Shown: piece by piece, positions 22,197-59,902 of the stretch | Layout of the letters: every line of letters begins with the position of its first letter | Position numbering within the stretch: position 1 is the stretch's first letter | Translations under genes and position numbers: made by a program | Assembly: GCA_041488275.1 (NCBI GenBank) | Contig: JBGPOY010000002.1 | Span: 80,872 to 144,871, forward strand | Length of the DNA stretch: 64,000 nucleotides | Direction of reading: 5' to 3' | Source: Candidatus Nanoarchaeia archaeon | GTDB lineage: Archaea > Nanobdellota > Nanobdellia > Woesearchaeales > ARS49 | Notes under the pieces: generated by a model | Told to the model about the DNA's origin: nothing | The model's input: the letters and a program-made list of their open reading frames with translations, nothing else | Databases searched by the model: none

Positions 22197-22248
22197 AATT
22201 CACCTTTTTCGTTCCTGTTGATTCCGTTGTTTGATTTATAAACTTTGC

Positions 22249-23079: not shown

Positions 23080-23585
23080 CAGCAGTTGCCCTCCGAACCG
23101 TCATCCGTGTTCTGCAGACAGGAAATGCGGTCTTTGTAGACGATGATGTCGCCGCGCAGCTTGGAGTTGTCGCTGCCCAAGGAAGCAACCTGCGAGTTCA
23201 ATGAAGAAACTTGGTTGCTCAACGACGTAATCTGCGAGTTCTTGGATGCCAATTGTCCGGTAGCGTCCGTCAATTGCGCGTTCAAGTCCGTCTTTTCCTT
23301 GGCAAGCGCGTCGCTCGTCGCCTTTGCCTCGGTGTACTTTTCGGTGAACTGGTCTTCGCGGTTTTGCTTGAGGTCCAGCTCAATCTGGGCCTTTTGCAGG
23401 ACATCCTGATAGTTCTTGGCCTGCACCGTGAGGTTGTTCAGCTCGGCGAGCTTGTCGTTGTACTGCTTGTTGATGTTGGTGAAGCGGTCCTGGAAGTAGA
23501 TGGTCGCGCCGACAAGCGACGACGCAATCAAAAAAATCAACAACAGCAAAAGCAAGTTCGCGTTTCGTGTTATGTAGCTTGTCAT
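23079..23585 (-). CDS. Single-TM coiled-coil protein of the MoxR operon
   Basis: N-terminal TM followed by about 120 aa of heptad repeats. Ends in a Cys-x9-Cys motif. Confidence 0.7.
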   Translation of the reverse strand: MTSYITRNANLLLLLLIFLIASSLVGATIYFQDRFTNINKQYNDKLAELNNLTVQAKNYQDVLQKAQIELDLKQNREDQFTEKYTEAKATSDALAKEKTDLNAQLTDATGQLASKNSQITSLSNQVSSLNSQVASLGSDNSKLRGDIIVYKDRISCLQNTDDGSEGNC

Positions 23586-27819: not shown

Positions 27820-27872
27820 GCTCACCAACTTTTCAGTATAGAAAAACGTATACTGATTCCCAGTTTATATAG

Positions 27873-38525: not shown

Positions 38526-39233
38526 TTGGGAGACGAAACACTGATTCCGGCGTTCGTGCAGGCCTATGCGGTCGGGCACGTCGCGATGGAGTCCGGCGAT
38601 AAGGGCGCGGCAGTCAAGGCATATCAGGACTTGCTGGCGAGCTACAAGCTCATCACGACCAGTTCTTTAGGGAAACCGCACAAGGACCTCGCGTACCAGC
38701 AAGTGCAGTCGCTCTACCACGACATTCAATCAATGCCTTCGGCAACCGTGTTGAAGAATGCCTCTCCCGTCAAGACTGCTTCAACGGCTCCCGTGGAATC
38801 ATCATACGCGTCAACGCAATCCTCCGCTGCCAAAGACTCCGCTCCTCGCGATTCCTTCCTTTCCAAACTTTCTCCGCGCGATTACGTCACGCTGAGCTTC
38901 TTCGCAGTATTAATCGTGCTCGTCCTGTTTGTCAAGCCCGAGTTTCTCGGTTTTGCCGCAGGCACGCCGAACGCCGCTCCGAGATGGTACGCGCCGACGA
39001 CGCTCACGGCAACCGCAGGACAGGCGTTTGTCTTTGATTTGTCGACGGCGTTCCGCGACCCCGACGGCGAGACGCTCGTCTATCTCGCGTCCGGAAGTCC
39101 GGGACTGCAAGTCACGATTCGCGGCAGCGTCGTTTCCGTGCTTCCGTCCGCGGCGGGCAATTACGTTCTGACGATGATGGCGAGCGACCTGTCGCACACG
39201 ACAAAAGTGCCGGTCGCGCTCCAGGTCTCCTGA
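38526..39233 (+). CDS. Type II membrane protein: helical (MIT/TPR-like) N-domain, S/T/A linker, TM, cadherin-like Ig domain
   Basis: ESGDKGAAVKAYQDLL helical repeat, TM VTLSFFAVLIVLVLFV, NAAP...AFRDPDGETLVY...MMASD. Confidence 0.7.
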   Translation: MGDETLIPAFVQAYAVGHVAMESGDKGAAVKAYQDLLASYKLITTSSLGKPHKDLAYQQVQSLYHDIQSMPSATVLKNASPVKTASTAPVESSYASTQSSAAKDSAPRDSFLSKLSPRDYVTLSFFAVLIVLVLFVKPEFLGFAAGTPNAAPRWYAPTTLTATAGQAFVFDLSTAFRDPDGETLVYLASGSPGLQVTIRGSVVSVLPSAAGNYVLTMMASDLSHTTKVPVALQVS

Positions 39234-39239
39234 GGCCCG

Positions 39240-42200
39240 ATGGCCAAGACCTCGTTTATTCTCACAACAATTCTCGTAGTAGTCCTTGCGCTTGCGTTCA
39301 CGGTTTCGCCATCCATTACGGGTAACGTCGCAGGCGCGCAAAAGCAACGCGCACCGCGCGAGACTGCTCCTCCCGCGTCGTTTCCCGCCATCGACCCCGC
39401 GATTGACGCCGCATTGAACGCAAACGGCAAGGCAAAAGTCATCATCACGCTCAAACCCGACACGACCGCAATCGCCGTCGAGGGGCTCACGCCGCGCCAG
39501 CAAAAAATTCATTCAGTCCAGCAAAAACTGCTCGCGCGCATCACCAACGCGAGCGGCATCGCCGACACAGAAACCGAAAACGTCCGTACGCTCACCAACG
39601 CTCCGGTCATCACCGCAACCTTGGGCAGGCGCGCCATCGCGATTCTCACGTCAAGCCCCGAAATTCAATCAGTCCAGCTCGCGCGCACGCTCAGCATCGA
39701 CCTCACCACGACCGTGAACGTCATCAAAGCCAGCAACGTCTGGGGCGAAGTCGTCAACGGCGTCAACGTCACGGGCGCCGGGCAGAGCATCTGCGTCATC
39801 GACACCGGAATCGACCCGAGCCACGCCACGTTTGCGGGAAAAATCGTTGACCAGCATTGCTACTGCGACAACAACTGCTGCCAAGGACTGAACGAGTCAA
39901 CCAACGCCACCGACGACAACAGCCACGGCACGCACGTCGCCAGCACGGCAATGGGCAACGGCGGCGGCGTCATCGGCGTCGCAAAGGGCGCGAGCGTCGT
40001 CGCGATGAAAGTCTGCGACAGCGGCGGCAGCTGCTCCGACTCCGACATCGCGCTCGCCATCGACTACTGCATCAACAAGTCATCCCAATACAACATCAGC
40101 GTCATTACGATGAGCCTGAGCGACGGCGGCGCGTACGCGACGCAGGGCAGCTGTCCGACAGGAATGGACGCGCTGATTTCTTCCGCAATCTCAAACAACA
40201 TCTTCGTTACTGCGGCGTCCGGTAACCAGTTCAGCACGACCGGCATCGGCTACCCCTCGTGTTCCCCGAACGCGACGAGCGTGGGCGCAACGACGCACGA
40301 CGGCAGCAGCATTGAAACGTCGTACAGCAACCGCGGGCCGCTGCTCGACGTCGTTGCACCGGGAACGAGCGTCGTCGCCGCAAACCTCGGCGGCGGAACC
40401 ATTGCAAAAACAGGAACGAGCATGGCAACGCCGCACGTCGCGGGCGTCGGCGCATTGCTCGCCCAAAATGCGCGCCTCCACAACCAGACCTTTGACCCGC
40501 AGTTGGCGGAACAGATTTTGAAAGAGACGGCACAGTCCTCATCAAGTTTCAGACTCGTCAACGTCCAAGCCGCGTTGCTGCGTTTCAATTCTAACTACAC
40601 CTACAACAGCACCAACAATTCGCTCGCGAACCCGAGCGTCGGGCGCGTGTTCTTCCGCGGAACGCAGAACGTCAGCCGATTGGCGGACTGCTTCAATCTC
40701 ACGGCGAACAACATCACGCTGCGCGACACGAACGCGAACTGCACGCAGTTCAACAACTCCGCGACGGTTCGGCTTGAAAACCTGCCGTTCCACGACGCCA
40801 AACCGTTCCTCAACGGCGCGCCGTGCTCCTCGCTCGAATGCCAGAACAAAACCGTCAACAACGGCGCGCTTACCTTTGATGTCACGCACTTCTCGAGTTA
40901 TACTGCCGGCACGGCCGCGAATCTCTCGATTTCCGACGACACGGACAACGAGAGCCGATTCATCGGCGACCAAGTCACCTTCCGCGCGAACTTCAGCAAC
41001 TCCACGGGACCGGTCAACACGACCGCGGGCGCGTGCCTTATCGCCATCAACAGCACCGGCGCTTACGGCGCGTTCCAAAACATGACCTCGACGAACGGCG
41101 CGTACCGGTACAACCAATCGTTCGCTTCAGTATTCACCGGCACGTACAACGTGACGTGCACGAGTTTCAACGAAACGCTTTCTACTGTCGACGGCGTCAA
41201 CCTGACAACGGACGCGCTCGCTCCCGTCGTCACGCTCCTCGCGCCGGCAAGCACCGTGACCACAAGCAGATTCGTCCGCTTCACGTACAACGTCAGCGAC
41301 AACAGCACGCTCCAGAATTGCGCGCTCTACCTCAACAGCACGTTGAACTCGACCAACACGAATGTCGTGAGGAACATCAATCAAACTTTCAACGTCACGC
41401 TGATGAACGGGAACTATTCGTGGAACGTCACCTGCACGGACGCAAGCGGCAACATCGGTTCAACCGCGACAACCGTGCTTGTCAACGTCACGAATTTCGC
41501 ACCGTACCTTCTCACGCCGATTGCCAACAAAACGTTCACGGAAGACACGAACACAACCGCCAATCTCTCGGCGGCGTTCAACGACAGCAACGGCGACCCG
41601 CTCACGTTCACGTCGGTCGCGAGCCTGAACATCAGCGTCGCCATCGACAACACGACCGGCGTCGCGACGCTTTTGCCGCTCGCGAACTGGTCGGGCTCAG
41701 GCAGCGTCGTCTTCACCGCGATTGACGTCGTCGGCGCGGGCAACACGTCAAACAATGTCTCCATCAACGTCACGTTCGTCAATGACGCTCCTTCATTGCA
41801 ATCCTCCCTCCCGAGCCAGAGCTGGTCGAGCGCGAGCAACGACAACGCGTTCGACCTCGACACCTATTTCACGGACTCGGACAACGCGACGCTCCTCTTT
41901 ACGAGCAACGGCACGAGCAGCATCACTGTCAGCATCGACCCGTCGACGCACGCCGTGAACTTCACGCAGTCCTCAGGATTCACGGGCACGGAACTCGTGA
42001 CGTTTACCGCCAGCGACGGCAGTTTGAGCACGCTCAGCAACCTCGTCACGCTCACAGTTTCATCGTCGGGCGGCGGCGGGGGCGGAGGAGGCGGAGGCGG
42101 TGGCGGCGGAGGCAGCAGCTGCGTCGACACGTGCACCGTTTCGGGAACGCACCTCGGCTGCACCGCGGCAGGGCAAGATATCCAGTGCGGCTACGGTTCA

Positions 42201-42620
42201 ACCTTGTGCCTGCATCCCATCACGCTCGACTGCGCCGCGGGAACCACCTGTCAGTCAGACGGCTGCGCCAAGAAAATCTGCTCGGAAGAATGGTTCTGCG
42301 ACGAGTGGACTGCGTGCGCGGACGGAAAGCAGACGCGCGACTGCACCGAAGCCAACGCGTGCGGCACCGAACTCGCGAAACCCGCGATGACGCGCAACTG
42401 CACAATCGAACCGAAAACCTACGAAATCCAAACGCCCGCTGCAACCGACCAACCGATTGAAGTCATCAACACAACGTGCGTCGGAAACGCCTGCGCGAAC
42501 GTCACGAGCTCCGTTGTCGGGCCGGGAGCAATCGAACTGAAGGCGGTCATCATCGGACTCATCACCTTGCTGATGGGTTCCTACCTGTTTTTCCGCTTTC
42601 ACCGCTTCAGCAAGCACTAA
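39240..42620 (+). CDS. Secreted, membrane-anchored S8 (subtilisin-like) serine protease with Ig/cadherin-like repeats, poly-Gly linker and Cys-rich domain
   Basis: Catalytic triad VIDTG, HGTHVA and GTSMATPHVAG. Propeptide, NDSNGD and TDSDN repeats, 15-Gly run, WFCDEWTAC..QTRDC, and a C-terminal TM. Confidence 0.93.
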   Translation: MAKTSFILTTILVVVLALAFTVSPSITGNVAGAQKQRAPRETAPPASFPAIDPAIDAALNANGKAKVIITLKPDTTAIAVEGLTPRQQKIHSVQQKLLARITNASGIADTETENVRTLTNAPVITATLGRRAIAILTSSPEIQSVQLARTLSIDLTTTVNVIKASNVWGEVVNGVNVTGAGQSICVIDTGIDPSHATFAGKIVDQHCYCDNNCCQGLNESTNATDDNSHGTHVASTAMGNGGGVIGVAKGASVVAMKVCDSGGSCSDSDIALAIDYCINKSSQYNISVITMSLSDGGAYATQGSCPTGMDALISSAISNNIFVTAASGNQFSTTGIGYPSCSPNATSVGATTHDGSSIETSYSNRGPLLDVVAPGTSVVAANLGGGTIAKTGTSMATPHVAGVGALLAQNARLHNQTFDPQLAEQILKETAQSSSSFRLVNVQAALLRFNSNYTYNSTNNSLANPSVGRVFFRGTQNVSRLADCFNLTANNITLRDTNANCTQFNNSATVRLENLPFHDAKPFLNGAPCSSLECQNKTVNNGALTFDVTHFSSYTAGTAANLSISDDTDNESRFIGDQVTFRANFSNSTGPVNTTAGACLIAINSTGAYGAFQNMTSTNGAYRYNQSFASVFTGTYNVTCTSFNETLSTVDGVNLTTDALAPVVTLLAPASTVTTSRFVRFTYNVSDNSTLQNCALYLNSTLNSTNTNVVRNINQTFNVTLMNGNYSWNVTCTDASGNIGSTATTVLVNVTNFAPYLLTPIANKTFTEDTNTTANLSAAFNDSNGDPLTFTSVASLNISVAIDNTTGVATLLPLANWSGSGSVVFTAIDVVGAGNTSNNVSINVTFVNDAPSLQSSLPSQSWSSASNDNAFDLDTYFTDSDNATLLFTSNGTSSITVSIDPSTHAVNFTQSSGFTGTELVTFTASDGSLSTLSNLVTLTVSSSGGGGGGGGGGGGGGGSSCVDTCTVSGTHLGCTAAGQDIQCGYGSTLCLHPITLDCAAGTTCQSDGCAKKICSEEWFCDEWTACADGKQTRDCTEANACGTELAKPAMTRNCTIEPKTYEIQTPAATDQPIEVINTTCVGNACANVTSSVVGPGAIELKAVIIGLITLLMGSYLFFRFHRFSKH
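42069..42113 (+). repeat. (GGN)15 poly-glycine codon run
   Basis: ggc ggc ggc ggg ggc gga gga ggc gga ggc ggt ggc ggc gga ggc, in frame in the protease. Confidence 0.9.
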
Positions 42621-42652: not shown

Positions 42653-42663
42653 CAACATTTATA
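42653..42663 (+). promoter_or_regulatory. BRE/TATA-like promoter of module 1 (CAACATTTATA)
   Basis: An identical 11-mer lies upstream of the paralogous gene at 50665-50675. About 40 bp before the start codon. Confidence 0.6.
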
Positions 42664-42701
42664 TACTGAAAACCAGGATTCCCCGAACATAAAAGAGGGT
42701 T

Positions 42702-44888
42702 GTGATGAGGAAAGGACAGCTAACCATATTCATCATTATTGGCTTGGTCATCGTTGTTGCGGTGGGCACGGTCATCTTTCTCAACGCACGGCTCGCCAAT
42801 CCCGCGTACACGCTCCCGCAGGCGGAGAAAGTCGCGGAGCAGGCGCAGCCGGTCCAGGACTACATCAACAACTGCATCGACATCGTCGCCCGCAGAGGAT
42901 TGCAGGAAATCGGCGACCACGGCGGCTATCTCTCCGTCAAAGACATCCCTGACGCAAAGCTCAATCCGTCCGACCCGACGGAAGGCGACGTCCTGTTCCT
43001 TTCTCCCGACAGCACGTACGGCGTGCCGTACTGGTGGTCCATGACGTCCAAGAACGACTGTACCGGCGGCTGCGCGTTCGCGAGCAAGCGACCGGCGCTT
43101 ACCGCCCGCCAAGGCAGTCCGAGCATCGAAGGGCAGCTCGCGCAGTACGTCAAGGACAATCTCGACACCTGTCTCAAGAGTTTTGAAAGCTTCTCCGCCG
43201 ACGGCATCAACGTCCAGCAGCAGACCGACAGCGAAGTGAAGGCCATCGTCACCGACGACAGCGTCGTGGTCGCGGTCACGCAGCAGTTCGACGCTTCATC
43301 GACCGCAGGACGCAATTCGCTCCACCAGTTTGTCGTCACGCTTCCGGTTCACCTGAAAGACATCTACAATCTCGCAACCAACATTACGGTGCTTGAATCA
43401 GAAAACGCGTTCCTCGCCAAGCACGCGCGCGACCTCATCTCCGTCTACGGACGCACGGACAGCGACGCTCTCCCGCCGGTGGGCAGTGTCGAGTTTGAGC
43501 TCGGTCCGGGCACCGTCTGGGTCAAGAACACCGTGCAGCAGCGCATTCAGCAGCTGTTGCAGGACGATGTTCCCCTGCTCCAAGTCTTCGGCACGCGCAA
43601 CTACCGTCCGATTGAAGTGCAGGGCGCCGTCACGAACAAGGACACCGTCTTCAACGCGCTCAACCGCAACGCGCTTATCCCCGAACTCAAGGCTTTCCCG
43701 AACGTCGAGGCGCGCTTCGCCTACCTTCCGGCGTGGAAACCGTACTTCGACCTCAACTGCAACGGACAAGTCTGCAGACCGGAAAGCATGATCAACTCAT
43801 TCGGATTCCTTTTCGGTGTGCAGCGCTACAATTTCGCGTATGATCTCAGCTATCCCGTGATGGTCGAGCTCTCGGACCCGGACGCGTACAACGGCAACGG
43901 ATACTCGTTCCGGTTCGCCCTCGAAGGCAACCTGCGCAACAACGCGCCCGTGACCGCAGATTGGAGCGCGCTCGACGTCCCGCAGCCCGCCGAGACGACG
44001 AGTCTGCTGTGCGATGAAGCGCAGCGGTCTTCCGGATTGGTCAACATCACGCTTACCGATAGCGTCTCACGCAAGCCGGTTGACGGAGGCGTCCTGTTCC
44101 GGTGCGGAGCCGAGGGATGCGTCGTCGGGCAGACAACCGACGGCAAACTCAGCACCCGCCTTCCGCGCTGCATCGGCGGCAGGATTTCAGGAGTGCAGAC
44201 GGACTACGTTTCCGACATTGCGGACATCCAGACGGGCACGGACGACAGCCAGCGCGTTGACGTGGTCATGCATCCGGTGGTCGCACTCAACGTTTCCGCA
44301 GAAAAGTTCCGCCTCCGCAAAGACCCTGTCTCGCAGAGCTGGAATTTCGACGACACGCCCGCGCCTTTCGGCATGTACGACCAGGCGCTCATCACGATGG
44401 TGCGCAAATCCGACTACGACCAGGAACAGTTCAGCACGTTCGCGTCAGTCTGCGGCAATGTACTTGTCAAAGGCGCCGAGCTCAGCAAGGACATCCGCTT
44501 CACGGCGGGAAACTACTCCGTCACGATTTCAACGCTCTACCACGCGAACCTGACGATTCCCGCGGACCGCAGGCACTACACGATTCATCATCTTTTGAGC
44601 ACCGAGACGAAATATTATTACGTTCCTGAGAACCCGATTTTCTTCGGCAACAACACGGACAACCCGTGCGTTTCCGAACGACCGTTCCCGTCTGGGCTGA
44701 TGCAGTTCAACTGGGAAATCACGCCCGCCATGCTGAGCCGCGCGCGTTCGGTGCTGTTCAAGACCGTCGTCATCGGCGCGGAAATCCCCGGCACGGTGCT
44801 CAAGATTGAAGACCTCGACCAGTTGCGCGCCACGCAGGCGTACTTCGACAGCGAGCGCGACCTGATGACTCCCGAGGTGCGCCCGTGA
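42702..44888 (+). CDS. Large protein with class III (type IV pilin-like) signal peptide; module component A1
   Basis: MRKG|QLTIFIIIGLVIVVAVG. Paralogous to 50734-52671 (QPV, GGYL, VPxW, NLxxCL, FxYDxxYPV, DPxAxxGxGxxFxFA, TRLP). Confidence 0.8.
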   Translation: MMRKGQLTIFIIIGLVIVVAVGTVIFLNARLANPAYTLPQAEKVAEQAQPVQDYINNCIDIVARRGLQEIGDHGGYLSVKDIPDAKLNPSDPTEGDVLFLSPDSTYGVPYWWSMTSKNDCTGGCAFASKRPALTARQGSPSIEGQLAQYVKDNLDTCLKSFESFSADGINVQQQTDSEVKAIVTDDSVVVAVTQQFDASSTAGRNSLHQFVVTLPVHLKDIYNLATNITVLESENAFLAKHARDLISVYGRTDSDALPPVGSVEFELGPGTVWVKNTVQQRIQQLLQDDVPLLQVFGTRNYRPIEVQGAVTNKDTVFNALNRNALIPELKAFPNVEARFAYLPAWKPYFDLNCNGQVCRPESMINSFGFLFGVQRYNFAYDLSYPVMVELSDPDAYNGNGYSFRFALEGNLRNNAPVTADWSALDVPQPAETTSLLCDEAQRSSGLVNITLTDSVSRKPVDGGVLFRCGAEGCVVGQTTDGKLSTRLPRCIGGRISGVQTDYVSDIADIQTGTDDSQRVDVVMHPVVALNVSAEKFRLRKDPVSQSWNFDDTPAPFGMYDQALITMVRKSDYDQEQFSTFASVCGNVLVKGAELSKDIRFTAGNYSVTISTLYHANLTIPADRRHYTIHHLLSTETKYYYVPENPIFFGNNTDNPCVSERPFPSGLMQFNWEITPAMLSRARSVLFKTVVIGAEIPGTVLKIEDLDQLRATQAYFDSERDLMTPEVRP

Positions 44889-47857
44889 AAAAGTTCTTTG
44901 CGGTGTTGTTCATTGCCCTCCTCGCGTCGATGCCGATTGCGTTCGCGCAGTCGCTCAACATCCAGCAGTTTGCGGGCAGGGACAACGTGCGGAACGTCGC
45001 CCAGCCGACGGACACGCTGGTCATCAAGGCGCTGGTCAGCATTCCCGGCGATGACACCATCACCAACGACCAAGTGCGGCTTACGACGAGCAGCGGCATC
45101 ACCTACCTGTTTGATTCCTGCGGTCAGCAGGGCGCGACCGCGACGTGCACGCTCCGGTATGACCTCGTCGGCGAAGGCGGCACCGATTCCTACGCCATCT
45201 CGCTCTTTGACGACGACAACAAGGAAGTCACCAGCGACGTCGAAGTGCTCACCAACGACTTCATCGACCCCGCGCTCACGTCATTCTCCGTCGACCCGTC
45301 GGTGCTCGGCACCGGCCCCACGACCGTGACGTACGCCGCAGAAGACTACGCGTTCTCGCCCGGCGACACGAGCGCGTGCGCCGGCGTCGGTAAAATCAAT
45401 CTCTACGAAGGCGGAACATCGGGAACGCCGACCGCGACGATTCCGGGCGGCGCCGACTGCACGTTCTCGGGCACGTTCCAGTACGCGGCTCACAACTCGG
45501 GGAACATCAACTTCTGCGCGCAGGCCGTTGACCGCCTGAACCGCAAGAGCCTTCCGATGTGCACCAATCTTTCCGTCGACAAGAGCCCGCCGCAGTTCAC
45601 CGGCTTCCGAGTCACGACCAAGGACGGCTTTGCCGTGCACGCCATTCCTCCGGACGGCATTCTCTCGGACGTCGCGGTCACCCTCAACGAGCAATCGCTC
45701 GACGTGAACAGCGTCCGCGCCGATTTCAACACGCTCACGCAGGACGGACAGCACGGTGACACGTCACCGCAGGAAATCGGCTCCGGAACTTCTCGCGAGG
45801 TCATCTTCCACGACATTCCCGTCAACAAGGTCAGCCCGTGCGAGTTCACCGTCAAGGCGGCTGACGTTTTCGGCAACATCGCTTCCCAGAAGTTCACGTG
45901 CGCCATCGTGCAGGACACCAGCCCGCCGCAGGCGCTGGGCGCAACGACCGGCTACACATCCGCCGACGGCACCGTTTTGCTGGGCATCCAAGGCGTGCTG
46001 ACGGTTCGATTCAGCGAGGCGTCGATGGAACGCGCGAACGCCTACCTCGACGCCACGCCTCTCGGGCTGGGCTCAAACCGCAAGGCCGAAACGTGCGTGC
46101 AGTCCGGCAGCGAATGGGACTGCCAATGGCACCTGCCGGGAAGCGTTCCGGCGGGGCGTTATGCGGTCACCATCCAGAGCAACACCGCCGACGACTTGGG
46201 CAACCAACTCGGCACGGCGGCTTCCTATTCCATCGACTTTGACCGCGACCCGCCGCGCATTATTTCAGGGCCCTCATTCCAGGCGTTCCACCCTGCGGTC
46301 GATTACGGCACGCAGGTCGTGAACGGTGACACGATTGAACTCTCGTACAATGTTTCCGGCGGTACAAGCGCGGTCGGCAACTTCAGCCAAATCGGCGGCG
46401 GGCAGACCGCGGGCCTGTGCGACTCGGAGCTGTGCACGTTCTCGGCGCAAATCCAGCAGTCCGGCGGTTACACTGCAAAACTGCCCCTGACCTTCTTCGA
46501 CGACGCGGGCAACTTCGTGACCGCCGTCTACAATCTCACGGTGTACAGCGTCCTCAACGAAACCGACCCGCACTGGTGGGGCAATCCGGTCGTGGACTGC
46601 TCGCCGAGCGTCGTGGACCGCAGTTCAGCGGCGCTCATCAACCACCAAGTGTACTGCCACATCAAACTGCACTCGTACGACCCGAAGGCGGACATCGTCG
46701 CGACCTCGATTGTTCCGGGCGAATGCACGGGCAACCTGCAGTCTAGTATCGCGGACGTCTCGCTGGTCAACAACGGCTTCCTCAGCAAGGACCCGTATAT
46801 GCGCGTGCTGCTCGCGACGCGCGAGTATCCCGAACAAACGCTCAACATCACGTGCCCCATCTATATCCTGACCAAGATTGGCAACGGGTTTACGCAGTTC
46901 CCCGAAAAGGAGAACGTCACGATGCGCGTGTCGTTCGGTACCTCCGCGATGGGTTCGTTGGGCGCAGGGCTCGACGACAAAATCAACAACGCGGTCGCCA
47001 GTGCCGACGGATTGAGCAAGTGGCTCGACACCGCCGTCAAATTCCTCGACTTCGGCAACAAGGTCTGCACGCTCCGAAACCTCCTCGTGGACGTCATGGG
47101 TGCGTTTGAAGTCGTGCACGCCGTGCTCACGGCGGTGGCAACGGCTGCACCTCTCGCGGAAGGAGTGCGTGCGGCGTGGTGCGGAACCAAGTCGAGCTAT
47201 GAAGGCACGTTCGGCGGCATTGACAAAATGCTTGCGCCCTTCTGCGGATTTCTGAACTGCAAGGGCATCGCTGGTGGATTGCTCGGCGACTTTAACTACG
47301 GCGGGCTCACGGCAGGACAGGGCGCGGCGGGAGAATCGGGACAGCTTCCCGCGATTATCGACCCCAAGCAAAGCTTTGTCTGGAGCGCGCTCACGCTCTG
47401 CGTGCCCGGCTTGATTTACAACGTCGACAAATACCGCCAGATTCAGTGCCGATACGCGACGTGCCTGCTCCGCGACGTCAAAAAGAACGGCGTTCCCGTA
47501 AGCGTGTGTGACGACGAGAAATCGTACCTGACCTGCAATTACTTCTGGGGTCAGGCGTTCAACGCAATCCCCTTCGCCAACATCGTGCAGTACGGCATCA
47601 ACCTCGTCAAGGAAGTCCTCGCAAACCCGTTCGCGGCGCTTACTCTTGCGATTAGCGTCGTGTGTCCGGCGACCTGCCCCAGCGGCACGCTGAACATCGG
47701 CTGCGCGTTCGCCAAAGTCTTTGAAGTCGTCGGCAGAGTCATCGGCGACGTGCAGAGCATCAAGGGTCCGGGCTTCTTCAAGCTTGGTCAGGGACCGTGC
47801 AATGATTTGAAGCAGGCGAAATCCGAAGCCGCAGCGCCGGCGGCGGGTGCGGCATGA
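44885..47857 (+). CDS. Large secreted Ig-like repeat protein with Cys-rich hydrophobic helical C-terminal core; component B1
   Basis: Sec signal MKKFFAVLFIALLASMPIAFA|Q, DxxPP Ig-type linkers, many Cys, amphipathic helices. GTGA-coupled to A1. Confidence 0.8.
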   Translation: MKKFFAVLFIALLASMPIAFAQSLNIQQFAGRDNVRNVAQPTDTLVIKALVSIPGDDTITNDQVRLTTSSGITYLFDSCGQQGATATCTLRYDLVGEGGTDSYAISLFDDDNKEVTSDVEVLTNDFIDPALTSFSVDPSVLGTGPTTVTYAAEDYAFSPGDTSACAGVGKINLYEGGTSGTPTATIPGGADCTFSGTFQYAAHNSGNINFCAQAVDRLNRKSLPMCTNLSVDKSPPQFTGFRVTTKDGFAVHAIPPDGILSDVAVTLNEQSLDVNSVRADFNTLTQDGQHGDTSPQEIGSGTSREVIFHDIPVNKVSPCEFTVKAADVFGNIASQKFTCAIVQDTSPPQALGATTGYTSADGTVLLGIQGVLTVRFSEASMERANAYLDATPLGLGSNRKAETCVQSGSEWDCQWHLPGSVPAGRYAVTIQSNTADDLGNQLGTAASYSIDFDRDPPRIISGPSFQAFHPAVDYGTQVVNGDTIELSYNVSGGTSAVGNFSQIGGGQTAGLCDSELCTFSAQIQQSGGYTAKLPLTFFDDAGNFVTAVYNLTVYSVLNETDPHWWGNPVVDCSPSVVDRSSAALINHQVYCHIKLHSYDPKADIVATSIVPGECTGNLQSSIADVSLVNNGFLSKDPYMRVLLATREYPEQTLNITCPIYILTKIGNGFTQFPEKENVTMRVSFGTSAMGSLGAGLDDKINNAVASADGLSKWLDTAVKFLDFGNKVCTLRNLLVDVMGAFEVVHAVLTAVATAAPLAEGVRAAWCGTKSSYEGTFGGIDKMLAPFCGFLNCKGIAGGLLGDFNYGGLTAGQGAAGESGQLPAIIDPKQSFVWSALTLCVPGLIYNVDKYRQIQCRYATCLLRDVKKNGVPVSVCDDEKSYLTCNYFWGQAFNAIPFANIVQYGINLVKEVLANPFAALTLAISVVCPATCPSGTLNIGCAFAKVFEVVGRVIGDVQSIKGPGFFKLGQGPCNDLKQAKSEAAAPAAGAA

Positions 47858-49890
47858 CGCGCGCGAAACTGCTGACCTTGTTGTTGCTCACGCTGTTCAT
47901 TCTTTCCTCAGTGCCGGCGTTCGCGGACTTGTACGTCGCGCCGCCCGCGGCAGCGCCCGGCACGCCCGCCGCGTCGGCAGGCGGCACGCCCTCGGCGTTG
48001 ACGCCGACCAGCTCCGCGGCGCCGAAAGTCTACTACGCGTTCAAGACGCAGGACGGACGGCAGGGAGTCTGGGACGCGCCCAGCGGGACGGCGTCCGCGC
48101 AAGTGCTGCAGCAAGTGCAATCGCAGTTCGGGGGAGCGAGCCTCATCTTCCCGACGCCGATTGCGAAATCGCTCGCGGATTTCAAGAAGGCGCACCCGAG
48201 CGCGGAATTCGGCGCGTACGGAGAAGGCACCGCGCAAAACACGCGCTACCTCAATCTCGGTCCGCTCTTCCTCGACCAGGATCCGGTGACGGGCGAAGTC
48301 AGGACGCTCGTGAAAATCGGCAACATCCAGTACGAGTACAGCGGCGTCGTCAGCCAGCTCGGCGTCCAGACGGACCTGAAGACCGGCGCGCAAACGCTGA
48401 CGTACGCCAACAAACCGGTCAATCCGAACGTCGACGACAATGGCAAGCTCTACTTTGAAGTCATTGACGCAAAAGGCGCGGCGACGGGAGAAAGCATTCA
48501 GCCCATTCCGCAGGGCGCGATTGATTTCGCGCCGAACGGCGAGCGGCAGATTCTCGACTCCAAAAACAACGTGCTCGGCACGTTTAGCATTGCAGAATGG
48601 CAGAGCGGCGGTTTCGAAAGCAAGCAAGACACGCTCGTTGCGGCGGCGGCGCAGCTTTCCGCGCAGGGAGCGTCATTGCAGGGCGCAAAGCTCGTCAACG
48701 GACAGTTTGTCTATCATTCAACGCTCGGCAAGGACGTGGTCGTCAGCGGCGACGCCCTGACCGTGACGCGCGGAACGCTCACGACGGACGGCAGCGGCAT
48801 CGACACGACGAAAGACTACCAGACGACGACGTTTGGCGATAAAGGGCAAGTCGCCGAGCGCGTGGTAAAGTCAGGCGACACCACGACAACGTACACGTTC
48901 ACCAAGGAACGCTGGACTATTAACGACAATCAGGGCGAGCTGCAGTCATTGACGGTGCTCCGAAAACCCGACGGAAGCCTTGTCGGCGCCGAGGTCTCGT
49001 CCGGACTTTACTATAACCCCGAGAGCGGCAAATACTTCGATGTAGCCGGCAAAGAACTGGCCGGCAAGGACCTGGACAAGGCGCTCGAGAACAACGAAGG
49101 CGCGGCAACAAACGTCAAGCTGGCGGACGCGGGCCAGGAACAGCTGCTCGCGGCGCAGCCCGGCTTGTGGTCGCAATTGCTGACCGGCGACAACATCGGC
49201 GGTATGCTCAAACAGCTCGCTTCGGGATACGAAGAATGGCGCGGCATCGGCGCGTACGGCTCCCTGTTCATCGGCAATCAGCAGCTCGCTGAACGCCGCC
49301 AAAGAATCAACGACGCGTTCTGCAGCGTCGGACTCGGCATTGACTGCATCACCGAAAAGATTTGTGAAGGCTACAGCGACCGGACGTCCGGCGCCAACAC
49401 GATAGTGACCGTCGTGCCCGGACAAGCCGTGCACGCTGCCGCTCATCTCGAGGCGGAAAAATCCGAAACCACCTACGTCCAAAACGCGTCAGGCTCGTAC
49501 GCCGTGAGTTTGTACCATGTGACATTCTACGCTTCCAGCCCCGACGACGCAAACGACGTCCAGCTCACCTTTTATTACGAGGGCGGAACGTATAACTGGT
49601 ATCCTGCTCCGGGACAGCACATCGAAAAAGGAGGTTCGGTCAGCGCGCAGGGCAACGGCGCCATCGTGAAGTACAGTCCTCGAGAGTACACGCAGGTGTG
49701 CATCATCCTTGCGCAAGGAATCAGGACCGGCACGGGTGGAAGCGCGAGCAGGCTGTGCGTTCCGATTGTCGCGAGCGGCATCTCGCCCAGCGGAGTGGCG
49801 CCCGCGGCGGCGCAGAACGCGTCGTCAACATCGTCGGGAGGAGGCAGTTCGCCCGCGGCTCCGACGTCGATTCCCGGCGGCGGATTCTGA
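47854..49890 (+). CDS. Secreted beta-rich protein with Cys-containing C-terminal domain; component C
   Basis: Signal MTRAKLLTLLLLTLFILSSVPAFA|D, A/P linker, beta-rich body, CSVGLGIDCITEKIC. ATGA-coupled. Confidence 0.75.
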   Translation: MTRAKLLTLLLLTLFILSSVPAFADLYVAPPAAAPGTPAASAGGTPSALTPTSSAAPKVYYAFKTQDGRQGVWDAPSGTASAQVLQQVQSQFGGASLIFPTPIAKSLADFKKAHPSAEFGAYGEGTAQNTRYLNLGPLFLDQDPVTGEVRTLVKIGNIQYEYSGVVSQLGVQTDLKTGAQTLTYANKPVNPNVDDNGKLYFEVIDAKGAATGESIQPIPQGAIDFAPNGERQILDSKNNVLGTFSIAEWQSGGFESKQDTLVAAAAQLSAQGASLQGAKLVNGQFVYHSTLGKDVVVSGDALTVTRGTLTTDGSGIDTTKDYQTTTFGDKGQVAERVVKSGDTTTTYTFTKERWTINDNQGELQSLTVLRKPDGSLVGAEVSSGLYYNPESGKYFDVAGKELAGKDLDKALENNEGAATNVKLADAGQEQLLAAQPGLWSQLLTGDNIGGMLKQLASGYEEWRGIGAYGSLFIGNQQLAERRQRINDAFCSVGLGIDCITEKICEGYSDRTSGANTIVTVVPGQAVHAAAHLEAEKSETTYVQNASGSYAVSLYHVTFYASSPDDANDVQLTFYYEGGTYNWYPAPGQHIEKGGSVSAQGNGAIVKYSPREYTQVCIILAQGIRTGTGGSASRLCVPIVASGISPSGVAPAAAQNASSTSSGGGSSPAAPTSIPGGGF

Positions 49891-50642
49891 TGCCGTATTG
49901 GAAGAGCGTCGGAAAGGTCTTCCTCGACGCGTTTCGTCTTGACATCCGATTTGTATTCGTGCTCGTCTATGATATTCTGTTCTTTCTTTTGCTTGCCGGC
50001 GTCGGCGTTCTTGGCGGCAAAGCGCTGGGAAGCATTGCCTCGGGATTCACCGGCATTAACACATCGATCATCACTGCGGAAACCGCCGCGGCGGTTAAGT
50101 CATTTTTCGTCACCAGCATTGCAGCGATTCTGGGATTTCTTGCGCTTGTCTTTATCATTTACGCAGTCTTGCAGGCGCTCGCGTGGGCGACCATTATCCA
50201 ACGCCGCCCGACGATAAAGTACCTCGTGCAGTTTTTCCTGCTCAACTTCGGCTGGCTTATAGGTTGGACTGCCGTCGGCTGGTTTTTCACCGCGGGACTG
50301 CAGGGCGGATACGTGACTGCGGGCGTCATCGTGCTCGCCATCCTGTTCACGCATCTTACGTTCGTGATGCAGCACGCGTTCGTGTTCGAGAACAAGGGCA
50401 TCAAGGCGTCGATGGGGCGCGCATTCTCGCTCGGGCTGGGCGGCATCCATCGGTTTATCGTTCCGTACCTGCTTGCGGCGGCGGTTTTCTTCATCTGGGC
50501 GCAGCTTTGGCGCCTCGTGCCGGTCCAAACTCCTTCGGGGTTCGCGTTCGCGGCGCTCGCGTGCATCATTTTCGCTCCTTTCTTGGCATGGCTGAAGTTC
50601 TACCTGCACGCGCTGTTGCAATCGTTCGCTCACACTGCCTGA
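49890..50642 (+). CDS. Polytopic membrane protein (about 6 TM); component D1
   Basis: ATG at 49890 overlaps the TGA of C. Motifs YDILFF and LQALAW are shared with 59093-59902. Confidence 0.75.
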   Translation: MPYWKSVGKVFLDAFRLDIRFVFVLVYDILFFLLLAGVGVLGGKALGSIASGFTGINTSIITAETAAAVKSFFVTSIAAILGFLALVFIIYAVLQALAWATIIQRRPTIKYLVQFFLLNFGWLIGWTAVGWFFTAGLQGGYVTAGVIVLAILFTHLTFVMQHAFVFENKGIKASMGRAFSLGLGGIHRFIVPYLLAAAVFFIWAQLWRLVPVQTPSGFAFAALACIIFAPFLAWLKFYLHALLQSFAHTA

Positions 50643-50664: not shown

Positions 50665-50675
50665 CAACATTTATA
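50665..50675 (+). promoter_or_regulatory. BRE/TATA-like promoter of module 2 (CAACATTTATA)
   Basis: Identical to 42653-42663. Both copies have ATATAG 9-10 nt upstream. Confidence 0.6.
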
Positions 50676-50733: not shown

Positions 50734-52671
50734 GTGAGGAGAGGGCAGCTAACCATATTCATCATCTTGGGACTAGTCGTCTTGCTGGCAGTAGGCGTCG
50801 TGCTCTACTTCACCGCCACGCAGGTCGTTTTCCGCGGAGGTACACTCGTTCCGCGCGAAGCCCAGCCCGTTTACGACTTTGTTTCCGCCTGCGCTTCGTC
50901 CATTGCGCAGGACGGTATCATCCTCCAAGGCGCGCAGGGCGGCTATCTTTCCCTGCCGCGCGACATCGAGCGCACGCCGACCGCGTACGTTCCGCTCGAC
51001 AGTCAAGGCGTGCTGAAAGTTCCGCTGTGGTTCTACGAAGGCAACAGCCGTATCCCGACGCTCGCGCTCCTTGAAGCCGACCTCGGCAACTATGTGGAGA
51101 ACAATCTCGAGTCGTGCCTCCAAAACTTCAGCGCGTTCAAGGACCAGTACCCTGTTGTCGAGAAATCGCCTCCGAAAGTGCAGGCGGTCATCAGTGACGC
51201 AGGAGTCACGCTCAAAATCACGTACCCGATTGCCATTCAGCGGCAGGACAAAACCATCGACGTGCAGGACTTTGTCGTCGAAGAAAAGGTCCTTTTGAAG
51301 CAGGCGTACGAGCTCGCGGTCAAGACAATGCAGCGCGAGGACCGCGACGCGTGGTTCGAGAACCTCACGATGGACCTGATGACCGCAGACCCCGCAATCC
51401 CGTTCGACGCGCTCACGTTCGACTGTTCCGAAAAGACGTGGAGACTGACGGACATCCGCACCGAAATGCAGGAAGTGCTGCGCGTCAACCTGCCCGCCAT
51501 CCGCGTGCAGAACACCGTCACGGCGCCGTTCCAGGAAAAGGATTCCGCGTACGTGGCCGCGACGAAGTTCAAGCTCGACGACTTCTTCCTCGGTCGTACG
51601 CCCGCGCACACGCCCGACGACGTGTTCGAATACCAGCGCCAGCGCCTCGACGTCGGGATTCCGAAGTCCTCGCTCGCGGCGGCGTTCACGTACAACCCCG
51701 CGTGGGGGCTGGACGTCAACGGCGAACCGAACCGCGGCGGCGTGCTCTCGAGCAAACTCACGAAGGGCGCGGCACAGTATCTCAGCTTTCTCTGTACGAA
51801 CTTCTACCACTTCAGCTACGACGTCATTTATCCCGTCGTCATGACCGTCCGCGACCCGAACGCGTTCCTCGGCGCCGGATTCACGTTCCAGTTCGCCTTC
51901 CCTGTCATCATCAACGGCAACGAGGGCGCGAGAAAGTCGTTCGGCTACTCGCAATTCCAGGGTTTCGAGACGTCGCAGGGATTCTGCGACAACCTCGGCA
52001 ACCAAGTCGTCGAAGTGCGCGCGTCAGGTCTGGAGCCCGACATCGGTGTGGTCGAACAGCCCGACGTCACCGTCGACTACCAGTGCGTCACGCAATTCTG
52101 CACGCTCGGCACGACGCGCGCGGACAACGGATTCTACCGCCTCGTCACGCGCCTGCCGGAAGGGTGCAGCACACCGTTCATCACGGCGAGCAAGGACGGC
52201 TATCTCCCCGTGACTGTGCCCGTGCGAGACAGCCTCGTGCAAGTCACGCTCCCGCGCCTGCGCGAAACGCACGTCAACGTCCTCAAGCACCCCTACGATC
52301 TCGCGAGCAAAAAGTTCCTCGACCCGCAGCCGCTGAGCGAGGGCGAGAACGTCACGCTCTTCGTGCACGTCCAGAACACGACCTTCGACCAATTCATCAC
52401 GTTCCCGAGCGGCAACAACACCGTTGAACTTGTCGACGGCACCGCGACGTACGGCTTCAACGCCGTGCTCACGCTGTTCGGCGACCTCGTCGGCGGCTAC
52501 CAGACCGAGAATTTGACCGTGCGCGGCCGCGACCTCGACGGCAGGGACACGCTCACGCTCCACGTCGTCGAAGTCGTTCCCGCGACGCAAAGCGACCAGT
52601 ACCGCGCCGACACCGGCACGTTCCTCCAAAGCGGAACCTATGCGGATATGCTCAAGCCGACGTTCACATGA
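50734..52671 (+). CDS. Large protein with class III signal peptide; component A2
   Basis: MRRG|QLTIFIILGLVVLLAVG. Colinear paralogue of 42702-44888. Confidence 0.8.
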   Translation: MRRGQLTIFIILGLVVLLAVGVVLYFTATQVVFRGGTLVPREAQPVYDFVSACASSIAQDGIILQGAQGGYLSLPRDIERTPTAYVPLDSQGVLKVPLWFYEGNSRIPTLALLEADLGNYVENNLESCLQNFSAFKDQYPVVEKSPPKVQAVISDAGVTLKITYPIAIQRQDKTIDVQDFVVEEKVLLKQAYELAVKTMQREDRDAWFENLTMDLMTADPAIPFDALTFDCSEKTWRLTDIRTEMQEVLRVNLPAIRVQNTVTAPFQEKDSAYVAATKFKLDDFFLGRTPAHTPDDVFEYQRQRLDVGIPKSSLAAAFTYNPAWGLDVNGEPNRGGVLSSKLTKGAAQYLSFLCTNFYHFSYDVIYPVVMTVRDPNAFLGAGFTFQFAFPVIINGNEGARKSFGYSQFQGFETSQGFCDNLGNQVVEVRASGLEPDIGVVEQPDVTVDYQCVTQFCTLGTTRADNGFYRLVTRLPEGCSTPFITASKDGYLPVTVPVRDSLVQVTLPRLRETHVNVLKHPYDLASKKFLDPQPLSEGENVTLFVHVQNTTFDQFITFPSGNNTVELVDGTATYGFNAVLTLFGDLVGGYQTENLTVRGRDLDGRDTLTLHVVEVVPATQSDQYRADTGTFLQSGTYADMLKPTFT

Positions 52672-59096: not shown

Positions 59097-59902
59097 AATC
59101 CGCTTTTCTCAAGACGCTCCGCGATATCAGAGCGCGTTGGTATCTTGTGCTCGTTATCGTGTTCGTCGACGTGCTGTTCTTCTACTTTTTCGGCAAGACG
59201 TACGCCACTATCTTTCAAGAAGTGTCCGTGCATCTTGACACGATTAATGCGCTGCTGCAGACGAGCATCGGAGGGCTGACGCAGAACCAGGACCCGAACG
59301 CATTGCAAATCGGCATTGAACAGTTCACGGCGGAGTTCACGGCGGTGAAGCTTGGCATCGTGCAGATTCTGACCTGGCTGTGGGGCTTCTGGACGTTCCT
59401 GCAAGGGGGAGCGTGGTACGCCGCGCACCAGATTGCCGGAACCGTGCGCGAAAAGCGGTTCTTCCGGCGCACGTGGACATTTATCTGGCAGTTCGTGGTC
59501 GCGACGCTCGTCGGGTACGGCGTGTTTCTCGCCCTGCTCGGCGGCATACTGAAGTTGTCGTTCATCGCGTTCTCCAACCCCATCCCCTTGCTCGGGCAGA
59601 CCGGCATCAACCTCATCGCGGGCATCGGCGCGTTCGTGTTCCTGTACTTCCTGACGACATCGTATGCCGCCATCGGCGCGGGATTCGTGAAACGCTTCCT
59701 GCGCGCTGCGTTCTACAACTTCACGGACACAGGGCTCGCGTACGTCATCACCCTGGGAATTCTGTTCCTGCTGGGGCAGACGCTCGCGCTCATCGCCGCA
59801 AGCAACGTGATTCTCGCGCTCGCGTTCGGAATCATTATTGTCCTGCCCGTCGGAGCGGCGCTCCGCGTATTCTTGGTTGAAGTCGTTCGAGAAACGACGT
59901 AA
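59093..59902 (+). CDS. Polytopic membrane protein (about 6 TM); component D2
   Basis: ATGA-coupled to B2. VDVLFF and LQGGAW match D1. Confidence 0.75.
   Translation: MKSAFLKTLRDIRARWYLVLVIVFVDVLFFYFFGKTYATIFQEVSVHLDTINALLQTSIGGLTQNQDPNALQIGIEQFTAEFTAVKLGIVQILTWLWGFWTFLQGGAWYAAHQIAGTVREKRFFRRTWTFIWQFVVATLVGYGVFLALLGGILKLSFIAFSNPIPLLGQTGINLIAGIGAFVFLYFLTTSYAAIGAGFVKRFLRAAFYNFTDTGLAYVITLGILFLLGQTLALIAASNVILALAFGIIIVLPVGAALRVFLVEVVRETT

Follow-up and report, generated by a model that had tools for sequence, protein, structure and literature searches.

A large woesearchaeal protein family with a prepilin-type N-terminus, encoded beside giant secreted proteins, probably anchors an undescribed cell-surface complex

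Two gene modules with paralogous A genes

The window, by which we mean the whole stretch of 64,000 nucleotides that was analysed (the read data behind it come from one sediment DNA metagenome, with no RNA run on record), carries two gene modules on its plus strand. Each contains a gene of the family described here (A), a gene for a giant, Cys-rich secreted protein (B) and a gene for a 6-TM protein (D), and a further secreted protein (C) is encoded in the first module. The genes and associated features are the following:

38526-39233, plus strand: single-pass Big_9 membrane protein, conserved upstream
39240-42620, plus strand: S8 subtilase with a C-terminal anchor, conserved upstream
42654-42665, plus strand: TATA-like AACATTTATATA, ~40 nt before the A1 start, read directly; putative promoter
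42702-44888, plus strand: gene A1 (728 aa from GTG 42702; 727 aa from ATG 42705 in the database record)
44885-47857, plus strand: B1, secreted 990-aa partner (4-nt overlap between A1 stop and B1 start)
47854-49890, plus strand: C, secreted 678-aa protein, overlap-coupled to B1
49890-50642, plus strand: D1, multi-pass membrane protein at the end of module 1 (start uncertain; ORF 49698-50642)
50666-50675, plus strand: the same TATA-like AACATTTATA before A2, read directly; putative promoter
50734-52671, plus strand: gene A2, the A1 paralog (645 aa)
50734-50745, plus strand: leader of A2, M-R-R-G; the H-domain begins at 50746
52668-59096, plus strand: B2, secreted 2142-aa partner of A2 (4-nt overlap; fn3/Ig-like domains only in Pfam)
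59093-59902, plus strand: D2, multi-pass membrane protein at the end of module 2

The TATA-like element occurs before A1 as well as before A2, and A therefore heads each module. The true start of A1 is probably ATG 42705. At the N-terminus A1 reads V-MRKGQLTIFIIIGLVIVVAVG and A2 reads VRRGQLTIFIILGLVVLLAVG; around the predicted cleavage site (arrow) the two are nearly alike (MRKG↓QLTIFIIIGL and MRRG↓QLTIFIILGL), as was claimed in the first-pass annotation, which described them as near-identical and of class III type. The same annotation reported motifs shared in colinear order, and this agrees with the BLASTP alignment, in which A1 and A2 are colinear across ~580 residues (E 5e-32, 25% identity) and which identifies them as paralogs. 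A six-frame scan of the whole window recovered only two such N-terminal motifs, that of A1 and that of A2.

Family spread and gene neighbourhood

The A1/A2 family is large, undescribed, order-wide in the Woesearchaeales and without database annotation. It comprises 4,212 representatives at 50% identity and 116 full-length homologs, and a scan of species genomes with the A2 alignment found relatives in at least 177 of them, each belonging to Woesearchaeota or Nanoarchaeia. Full-length A1 and A2 had no match in Pfam and NCBIfam.

Two or three diverged modules are present per genome, flanked across the loci by housekeeping genes. The A gene is directly followed by B in 99 of 108 cases (A1-type 74/83, A2-type 25/25) and 61 A-B start/stop overlaps were counted, a gene order that supports A and B as an obligate, often overlap-coupled pair. 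No module was without D, whose stop overlaps the start of A in the third paralog set. Within 10 kb of the module, no T4F ATPase, platform protein or A24 peptidase was found at ~80 loci. D1 and D2 were themselves considered as A24 peptidases and ruled out (no Pfam match, no GxGD motif by eye). The AAA ATPase and coiled-coil genes that lie upstream in the window were discarded as module parts, as they are not conserved neighbours elsewhere, and two apparent A-B fusion ORFs (L077 and L011), candidate Rosetta-stone evidence, turned out to be masked-N runs bridging two genes.

The N-terminal signal

The following features were assigned at the N-terminus of A1:

42705-42716, plus strand: predicted leader M-R-K-G (from the logo of 122 homologs and the EppA sites KG↓Q)
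between 42716 and 42717, plus strand: predicted prepilin-peptidase cut, after G (from the motif)
42717-42782, plus strand: hydrophobic H-domain, predicted alpha1N-like helix QLTIFIIIGLVIVVAVGTVIFL, with invariant Q+1, F+5 and G+9

The N-terminal logo represents 122 distinct homologs (88-89 A1-type and 34 A2-type), and the leaders in the family are 3-6 residues long. Gln occupies position +1 in all 122; position -2 is K/R in 116 (A1-type 83/88, A2-type 33/34; the remainder S or Q) and position -1 is G, A or S and no other residue, both in the A1-type (47, 22 and 19, respectively) and in the A2-type (23, 8 and 3). Position +3 is T, S or A, position +9 is G, and position +5 is F/Y in 121/122 and V in one. 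The lack of Glu at +5, which had been noted for A1 and A2, is thus a family-wide property (0/122 homologs with Glu). In some of the distant short (256-aa) paralogs a T is found at -1. An uninterrupted hydrophobic stretch of ~21 residues starts straight after the predicted cut; the corresponding AF2 helix spans residues 3-32. With an entropy of 1.04 bits for residues 3-15 and of 2.02 bits for the whole protein, the N-terminal segment has double the average conservation of the protein and belongs to the best-conserved parts, whereas the TM anchors and Sec signals encoded in the same operon (TMBig9, S8, B1 and C) are conserved no better than their own proteins.

The charged residue at -2, the G/A/S at -1 and the hydrophobic stretch of ~20 residues are those of a class III signal, and of the residues typical for the EppA type (DUF361, QxSxE) the +1 Gln is present and the +5 Glu is absent. 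The sequences therefore support the view that the A N-terminus has every sequence feature of an EppA/Epd-like class III (prepilin-type) signal. The Epd pilins of M. maripaludis are processed by EppA at KG↓QV, KG↓QL, KG↓QI and RA↓QI, where the +1 Gln is required by the enzyme, and archaeal prepilin peptidases in general depend on G/A/S at -1 together with a charged -2 residue (PMC4371748); the A motif matches these experimentally defined sites, minus the +5 Glu. Glu5 is needed for homopolymerisation and dispensable for processing, and Glu5 mutants still co-assemble (PMC4471445). Its loss fits a subunit unable to homopolymerise yet able to enter a mixed filament.

In the flanks of related loci lie canonical small pilins of 175 aa (KKA↓QAAMEF) as well as pilin-like proteins with K[KR]G↓Q that measure 134-256 aa, in some relatives at 2-7 kb from the module; the lineage thus uses this cleavage motif. 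In related genomes, the small pilin-like proteins with K[KR]G↓Q are also without a +5 Glu, and by this comparison its lack is not peculiar to A. When the first 70 residues of A1 and A2 were searched against Pfam, including the Class_IIIsignal model PF04021, and NCBIfam, no match was obtained at E ≤ 10 other than noise (e.g. FtsL, TrbK, Tad). For PF04021 this is a weak test, because the model is also weak on the canonical-looking small pilins of the lineage, one of which reaches only E 0.044 and a second of which is not matched. In DPANN genomes, T4F core genes at scattered positions are common, as are system-1 (Epd) pilins, the latter being the commonest T4F parts, and large binding proteins that bear a class III signal are widespread in archaea (PMC13705601).

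Domain architecture

The structure of A1 was derived from an AF2 model (pLDDT 91), which was compared with the PDB and BFVD libraries using Foldseek. Behind the signal the following parts were distinguished:

42783-42836, plus strand: variable linker, residues 28-45, the least conserved segment (pLDDT ~70)
42837-43346, plus strand: first head module, residues 46-215 (AF2 model and comparison with shorter paralogs)
43347-43961, plus strand: rest of the ~380-residue alpha/beta head, residues 216-420 (model and conservation)
44037-44867, plus strand: three beta-sandwich domains (~446-700, carboxypeptidase-regulatory/Ig-like) and a C-terminal helix, 702-722 (AF2 and Foldseek)

The N-terminal helix is the only TM segment in A, and 8-10 Cys are conserved. 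In the model, helix 3-32 is followed by the variable linker (here 33-45), by helix 46-72 and later by a 4-strand sheet, and no alpha1C continuation is apparent. The first head module holds, in this order, the C58 helix, a GGY motif, a CxGxC loop, the NLxxC157L helix and a four-stranded antiparallel sheet; it is common to the shorter paralogs, including the 256-aa 'mini-A' proteins, which consist of the signal and this module and for which a search recovered 15 clusters in all. The best-conserved stretch of the head is RYNFAYDxSYPV (374-392), joined by E408, N410 and R412. All Cys motifs listed in the first-pass annotation were recovered and are conserved in the family: C58 lies in helix 46-72, C157 in NLxxCL, and CxxxxCxxG...TRLPxC at 468-490, within the three-beta-sandwich region.

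For the three C-terminal beta-sandwich domains of the model, Foldseek returned carboxypeptidase D/N regulatory (transthyretin-like) domains with a probability of 1.0 (2nsm, 1qmu and 3mn8; rmsd 3.3-4.0 A over 81-93 columns), and the full model gave generic beta-sandwich matches only. The likeness exists at the level of the fold only, because Pfam (including PF13620) gives no match, and the earlier description of a carboxypeptidase-regulatory-like beta C-terminus thus holds for the fold and not for the sequence. Residues 1-435 gave no match to a type IV pilin or other fold in Foldseek; the N-domain comparisons with PDB and BFVD yielded nothing significant, and there was no pilin among the PDB matches listed. 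An HMM profile of the N-domain had a designed protein as its sole match among the PDB sequences (E 1e-3), which was judged meaningless. As modelled, the ~380-residue head is a confidently predicted fold without a solved relative. With no pilin fold detected by Foldseek, and with a variable linker of lower confidence between helix and head, the initial label of 'giant pilin' is too strong; it overstates the case, and 'pilin-signal anchor or adaptor' is therefore what the data support.

Comparison with known systems

The closest relatives of the signal are the EppA-processed Epd pilins of M. maripaludis (T4F system 1, DUF361/QxSxE), which share with A the short basic leader, the site composed of K/R and G/A before the cut and Q-[ILV] behind it, the obligatory +1 Gln, S/T at +3 and a hydrophobic helix of ~20 residues. 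However, Epd pilins are small and carry Glu at +5, whereas A is 650-730 aa long, has Phe/Tyr at +5, has no detectable pilin head and is not matched by the Pfam Class_IIIsignal model. In being a large non-pilin extracellular protein bearing a class III signal, A resembles the bindosome proteins of Saccharolobus solfataricus (GlcS, AraS, TreS), which are processed by the prepilin peptidase and have their genes apart from those of the T4F base machinery serving them. Unlike these, A lacks a solute-binding fold and an ABC neighbour (neither a Pfam match nor a fold of solute-binding proteins was found in A, nor were ABC genes found in the flanks), and has a giant secreted protein as its fixed partner.

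The combination of a Glu5-less subunit bearing a pilin signal with a large secreted non-pilin protein is also seen in the minor-pilin tip complexes (GspK/GspIJ; FimU-PilVWX with PilY1), and GspK likewise lacks Glu5; yet the minor pilins of these complexes keep the pilin fold and sit in pilus operons, and A shows neither. SlaB, the S-layer stalk of the Sulfolobales, likewise carries serial beta-sandwiches on one membrane anchor and is encoded beside the gene of a giant surface protein, but it has a C-terminal anchor and a coiled coil, whereas A has an N-terminal anchor, no C-terminal TM, no coiled coil and a large novel head. Modular type IV pilins such as PilB of Streptococcus sanguinis (PMC8179133) are built like A from an N-terminal signal, a base module and C-terminal grafted modules, with mini-A (256 aa) corresponding to the signal and the first module. 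They differ from A in that its base module cannot be recognised as one of pilin type; as only 15 mini-A clusters were found, the modular-pilin argument stays weak.

Proposed role of A and alternative explanations

Because A is encoded beside a giant secreted protein, we take it as probable that the A proteins anchor a cell-surface complex not described so far. The reading that we prefer, and to which we give a probability of about one half, is that A is a prepilin-peptidase-processed anchor or adaptor for B; that A binds B we infer from the synteny. An A24 prepilin peptidase of the EppA/PibD type, encoded elsewhere in the genome, would remove the leader of 3-6 residues (MRKG) at the cytoplasmic face, after which an N-terminal Gln and the hydrophobic helix of ~21 residues would remain. 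The helix would be the sole anchor, either in the membrane, in the style of a bindosome or pseudopilus, or within an Epd-like type IV filament, as part of its core; with Phe in place of Glu at +5, A is not expected to homopolymerise and would be a minor, cap or base subunit. The flexible linker would bear a rigid extracellular stalk, made up of the novel, disulfide-bonded head of ~380 residues and the three beta-sandwich domains, and this stalk would bind and position the co-translated secreted giant B (plus C), beside the 6-TM D. The original proposal of a tip or adaptor subunit that presents B on a type IV filament or pseudopilus is partly supported: it is favoured by the class III signal, by the A-B pairing and by the fitting loss of Glu5, and is opposed by the undetected pilin fold and by the absence of T4F genes within 10 kb.

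A could also be a true minor pilin with a capping or priming function in an Epd-like type IV pilus, showing B at the tip, as GspK/PilX-type subunits do with PilY1, although we regard this as doubtful. The EppA-type signal without Glu5, the obligate partnership with a large, secreted protein that is not a pilin and the nearby small pilin-like genes in some relatives speak in favour, as does the pilin-sized mini-A, which suggests a modular-pilin build; against these stand the undetected pilin fold, the flexible linker after the helix, the absence of assembly genes nearby and the small size of the mini-A family. Moreover, the small pilin-like proteins of the lineage are also without Glu5, and the loss of Glu5 therefore does not single out a tip position. 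If A were instead an uncleaved type II signal-anchor, its helix would be conserved through packing against the 6-TM D or another partner. The helix-linker-head layout is indeed like that of a monotopic membrane protein, D accompanies A in every module (with the D stop/A start overlap in the third paralog set), pilin fold and nearby pilus machinery were both undetected, and some short paralogs have T at -1. We nevertheless consider this unlikely, since the G/A/S at -1, the ~95% K/R at -2 and the invariant +1 Gln are maintained despite 25-30% identity elsewhere: this constraint lies at the cytoplasmic edge of the helix, where a peptidase would read it and bilayer packing would not select for it. 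In addition, proven EppA sites show the identical motif and the other anchors of the operon are without such conservation.

Seen as a part of the core envelope, A might be a SlaB-like membrane stalk, with a cleaved or uncleaved N-terminus, and B the canopy of a Woesearchaeal cell wall, and the modules would then not be devices for host contact. The housekeeping-gene surroundings and the 177 species genomes mark the module as core genome, the anchor gene is coupled to a giant gene, just as the stalk and giant genes are in slaA-slaB, and Foldseek matched the beta-sandwiches to SlaB (8qox_B, E 4e-4, probability 0.98). This match spans generic beta-sandwiches only, however, with a TM-score of 0.12; SlaB uses a TM helix at its C-terminus, together with a coiled coil, as anchor where A is anchored N-terminally, and two to three diverged modules per genome and an S8 protease would be unusual for an S-layer, which makes this explanation quite improbable. 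Finally, the nearly invariant D381, S383, E408, N410 and R412, which lie on adjacent strands with conserved aromatics around them, might be taken for the active site of an enzyme, e.g. a glycan- or peptidoglycan-active hydrolase, in which case A would be a pilin-signal-anchored catalyst. This we hold to be very improbable: searches of Pfam, NCBIfam and PDB sequences gave no match and no enzyme fold was matched, a conserved His and a nucleophile motif are both absent, and B2 has Ig/fn3 domains only.

Implications for the Woesearchaeota

Among the uncultured archaea, the Woesearchaeota and their relatives belong to the most abundant groups. They are believed to lead an attached life on other cells, yet we know of no identified apparatus for this attachment. 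We tentatively suggest, as a possibility that we would not yet bet on, that the A-B-(C)-D modules represent a lineage-defining, undescribed contact organelle of the Woesearchaeota, in which pilus machinery encoded elsewhere would insert the Glu5-less A at the cap or base position of a short pseudopilus and the novel head would hold the giant, Cys-rich B outward so that it meets a partner cell. If so, A would constitute a new functional class of T4F cargo, having neither a pilin fold nor the nature of a binding protein. If the A N-terminus is pilin-like in its processing, the known reach of archaeal T4F would come to include large cargo of a new kind, and the peptidase site and the A-B pair would provide a testable handle on how DPANN archaea build their surface.

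The A genes and their N-terminal signal

The window carries archaeal proteasome and exosome genes and belongs to an uncultured DPANN archaeon. Two paralogous genes for large surface proteins with pilin-like N-termini are found in it:

42702-44888 (+), A1, 728 aa from GTG; in the database record, GCA_041482495.1 contig JBGPDW010000001.1, translation begins at the next codon, ATG 42705 (727 aa)
50734-52671, A2, 645 aa

The products align colinearly over ~580 residues (25% identity, E 5e-32), and the near-identity of their N-termini claimed in the first-pass annotation was borne out (A1 MRKGQLTIFIIIGLV, A2 (M)RRGQLTIFIILGLV); in a six-frame search of the window the motif occurred only in these two genes. 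The shared colinear Cys-containing motifs it described are likewise present in both proteins and are conserved across the family.

The N-terminal comparison drew on the related loci, with 89 distinct sequences of the A1 type and 34 of the A2 type. The leader preceding the predicted prepilin-peptidase cut (written as /) is just 3-6 residues long.

Residues around the predicted cut in A-type N-termini
-2: K or R in 116/122; S or Q in the remainder
-1: solely G, A or S (A1-type 47/22/19; A2-type 23/8/3)
+1: Gln in 122/122
+3: T, S or A
+5: Phe or Tyr in 121/122, Val in one, Glu in none
+9: Gly

The Epd pilins of M. maripaludis are processed at RA/QI, KG/QV, KG/QV, KG/QL and KG/QI; G, A or S at -1 is needed by all prepilins, a charge at -2 by archaeal peptidases, and Gln at +1 by the pilin-specific peptidase EppA (PMC4371748). 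Since the residues at the cut in the A proteins match these sites and rules, their motif may be read from sequence as an EppA-type class III site in all respects but +5, where Epd-type pilins have Glu and the A proteins nearly always Phe or Tyr.

The flanks of related loci encode canonical small pilins with +5 Glu (175 aa, MVMKKKA/QAAMEFLMTYGW; 145 aa, MAMMRKA/QASIEVV) and pilin-like proteins of 134-256 aa that start with K[KR]G/Q and lack it, which suggests that class III-type signals are in use in the lineage. In one subclade, small pilin-like genes of this latter size, without +5 Glu (MKRG/QTGIGLVILG or MKRG/QQSIALVLLG), are placed between ThrRS and the module of A1 and TMBig9 (a single-pass Big_9 membrane protein gene); their place in the window is taken by an AAA ATPase and a coiled-coil gene:

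L031: 766-1497
L019: 6516-6992 and 7067-7792
L018: 1238-2586
L038: 6696-7217
L028: 6241-6645

Predicted structure

The full-length AlphaFold2 model of A1, built with 67 homologs, was confident (pLDDT 91.2) and comprised:

residues 3-32, helix
residues 33-45, loop (pLDDT about 70)
residues 46 to about 420, alpha/beta domain
residues 422-433, disordered linker
residues 446 to about 700, three beta-sandwich domains
residues 702-722, terminal helix

All Foldseek matches of the whole model were beta-sandwich proteins (the TIE protein, sortase pilins, SlaB with E 4e-4, and carboxypeptidase regulatory domains), and the carboxypeptidase-regulatory-like C-terminus expected from the first-pass annotation holds at fold level (probability 1.0, rmsd 3.3-4.0 A). 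A model of residues 1-435, from an alignment of 61 loci, reached pLDDT 92.1 and pTM 0.86; it gave nothing significant in Foldseek searches of the PDB library (best E 0.029, probability 0.04) or BFVD, a sequence profile of the N-domain had no meaningful match in the PDB, and no type IV pilin was among the Foldseek matches listed for the A1 models. The head is thus modelled with confidence, and the empty searches suggest that its fold has no solved relative; a pilin fold is not supported by the models.

The first ~160 residues of the head (helix 46-72 with C58, GGY, a CxGxC loop, helix 142-165 with C157 and a four-strand sheet) form a module found again in shorter paralogs, namely a ~620-aa type and 256-aa 'mini-A' proteins (E 5e-13 against A2 residues 2-200), a small family of 15 clusters. 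This reuse resembles the build of modular pilins. The mini-A proteins, which have the size of pilins and occur in a narrow clade only, consist of an A-type N-terminus (KKT/QVTLF, with T at -1) and this module alone, unlike the giant A proteins to which they are related:

L067: 5877-6647 (+), mini-A, 256 aa
L057: 3962-4732 (+), mini-A, 256 aa

Family distribution and gene order

Neither Pfam nor NCBIfam recognised any part of A1 or A2, and a literature search found no published description of the family. A word-index search retrieved 116 full-length homologs (690-780 aa), every one 'hypothetical'; an exhaustive representative search with A2 gave 4,212 clusters at E<=1e-3 and 1,989 at E<=1e-10. 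Of the genomes scanned, one per species, 177 contained relatives, and all 80 records listed carried DPANN-type labels. The homologs are all named Woesearchaeota or Nanoarchaeia; record titles reading 'uncultured Methanosarcinales' and 'Binatia' were taken to be mislabelled because the same operon adjoins in those records.

Comparison of the window's proteins with all ORFs of 84 loci (phmmer) revealed a strongly kept order, TMBig9-(S8)-A1-B1-C-D1-A2-B2, in which S8 is a subtilase, B a giant secreted partner, C a secreted protein and D a multi-pass membrane protein. A B gene directly follows 74/83 A1-type genes and 25/25 A2-type genes, the other 9/83 being a third paralog (840-916 aa) overlap-coupled to an upstream D gene. 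The A-B junctions overlap in 61 cases; within the window 4-nt overlaps join A1/B1, B1/C, A2/B2 and B2/D2, and the same AACATTTATA box precedes each A gene. The other flanking genes are housekeeping genes (tRNA synthetases, S6e, PTH2, TruD), and no T4F ATPase, platform or peptidase gene was found in the flanks. Given this order and these flanks, the module belongs to the core genome, with A-B as its invariant unit.

B2 of the window contains fn3/Ig domains only. Two apparent A-B fusions (L077:~1860-1960, L011:~11770-11870) were rejected as runs of masked N, which in the genome_contigs records span the gap from the A stop codon to the start of B and yield false ORFs of 1,100-1,600 aa, a trap for Rosetta-stone arguments. 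In the third module that some genomes carry, the 840-916-aa A paralog (KKA/QVTIYIIIG, Tyr at +5) comes after a B-like giant gene and a D-like 6-TM gene, and its start overlaps the stop of the latter. The coordinates of this module and of other genes noted are:

L021: 1045-4373; L024: 5853-9178; L068: 639-4207; also L010, L017 and L080, third module
39240-42620 (+) in the window, S8 subtilase upstream of A1, with 15 consecutive Gly, a C-terminal region rich in Cys and a TM anchor at the C-terminus
L074: 7662-8870 (-) and 31 other loci, ~400-aa single-pass membrane protein
L003: 15601-16446 and L025: 3634-4476, Bro-N domain gene
20407-27828 (-) in the window, Bat/aerotolerance-type operon: DUF58-like gene (20407-21261, -), MoxR-like AAA (21258-22196, -) and two BatA/VWA proteins (23582-27828, -; Pfam VWA, BatA, DUF7406-7408)

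The subtilase goes with the module at six loci only, all of the clade closest to the window, and is thus accessory rather than core. The ~400-aa protein had no match in Pfam; its N-domain is small, helical and cytoplasmic (VVDYVKSLLQKGYDIS..IRN.MLKYGY), its ectodomain is rich in Cys, and its gene, divergent and just upstream of A1 in 32 loci, seems to take the place of the TMBig9 gene of the window's clade. Bro-N domains are typical of viruses and mobile elements; here the gene lies inside or beside the A-B-C module in a few relatives.

Anchor, tip or stalk

The readings were scored independently and overlap. That A is a processed class-III-signal anchor or adaptor, the general reading, is given about even odds (0.5). 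An uncleaved signal-anchor is rather unlikely: the segment from -3 to +10 ranks among the best-conserved stretches of A (entropy 1.04 bits vs 2.02 for the whole protein; the linker of residues 28-45 after the helix is the least conserved, 2.71), and in the TMBig9, S8, B1 and C families neither TM anchors nor Sec signal peptides are better conserved than the proteins that carry them, two controls that speak against a plain anchor. Positions -2, -1 and +1, where the constraint lies, sit on the cytoplasmic edge of the helix, where a peptidase would read them.

A filament tip subunit, a special case of the general reading, is a possibility of lesser weight, though ahead of the uncleaved anchor. 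Glu5 is needed for homopolymerisation, not for processing, and subunits mutated at Glu5 can still assemble together with wild-type ones (PMC4471445); the small pilin-like proteins show that A is not alone in lacking it, which makes a missing Glu5 a weaker argument for a tip position. An S-layer stalk, which fits a cleaved or uncleaved N-terminus alike, is doubtful and somewhat less probable than either, and an enzymatic head is very improbable.

Among known systems, the A proteins resemble EppA substrates in their N-terminal sequence, and bindosome proteins as large class-III-signal cargo encoded far from the machinery. Such binding proteins are widespread in archaea with genes away from the machinery, T4F core genes are mostly scattered across the genome in DPANN, and system-1 (Epd-type) pilins are encoded by 1,990 DPANN genomes (PMC13705601). 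From Epd/DUF361 pilins the A proteins differ in the absent +5 Glu and the lack of a detected pilin head, and from bindosome binding proteins in that they lack both an SBP fold and an ABC transporter context; for these reasons we filed them as class III signal surface proteins, not pilins. In the best-supported reading, as an anchor or adaptor, A would have its processed hydrophobic N-terminus as sole anchor, and its extracellular stalk would partner the co-translated giant B; the helix may stay in the membrane, in the style of a bindosome or pseudopilus, or may join an Epd-like filament as a minor or cap subunit that does not polymerise.
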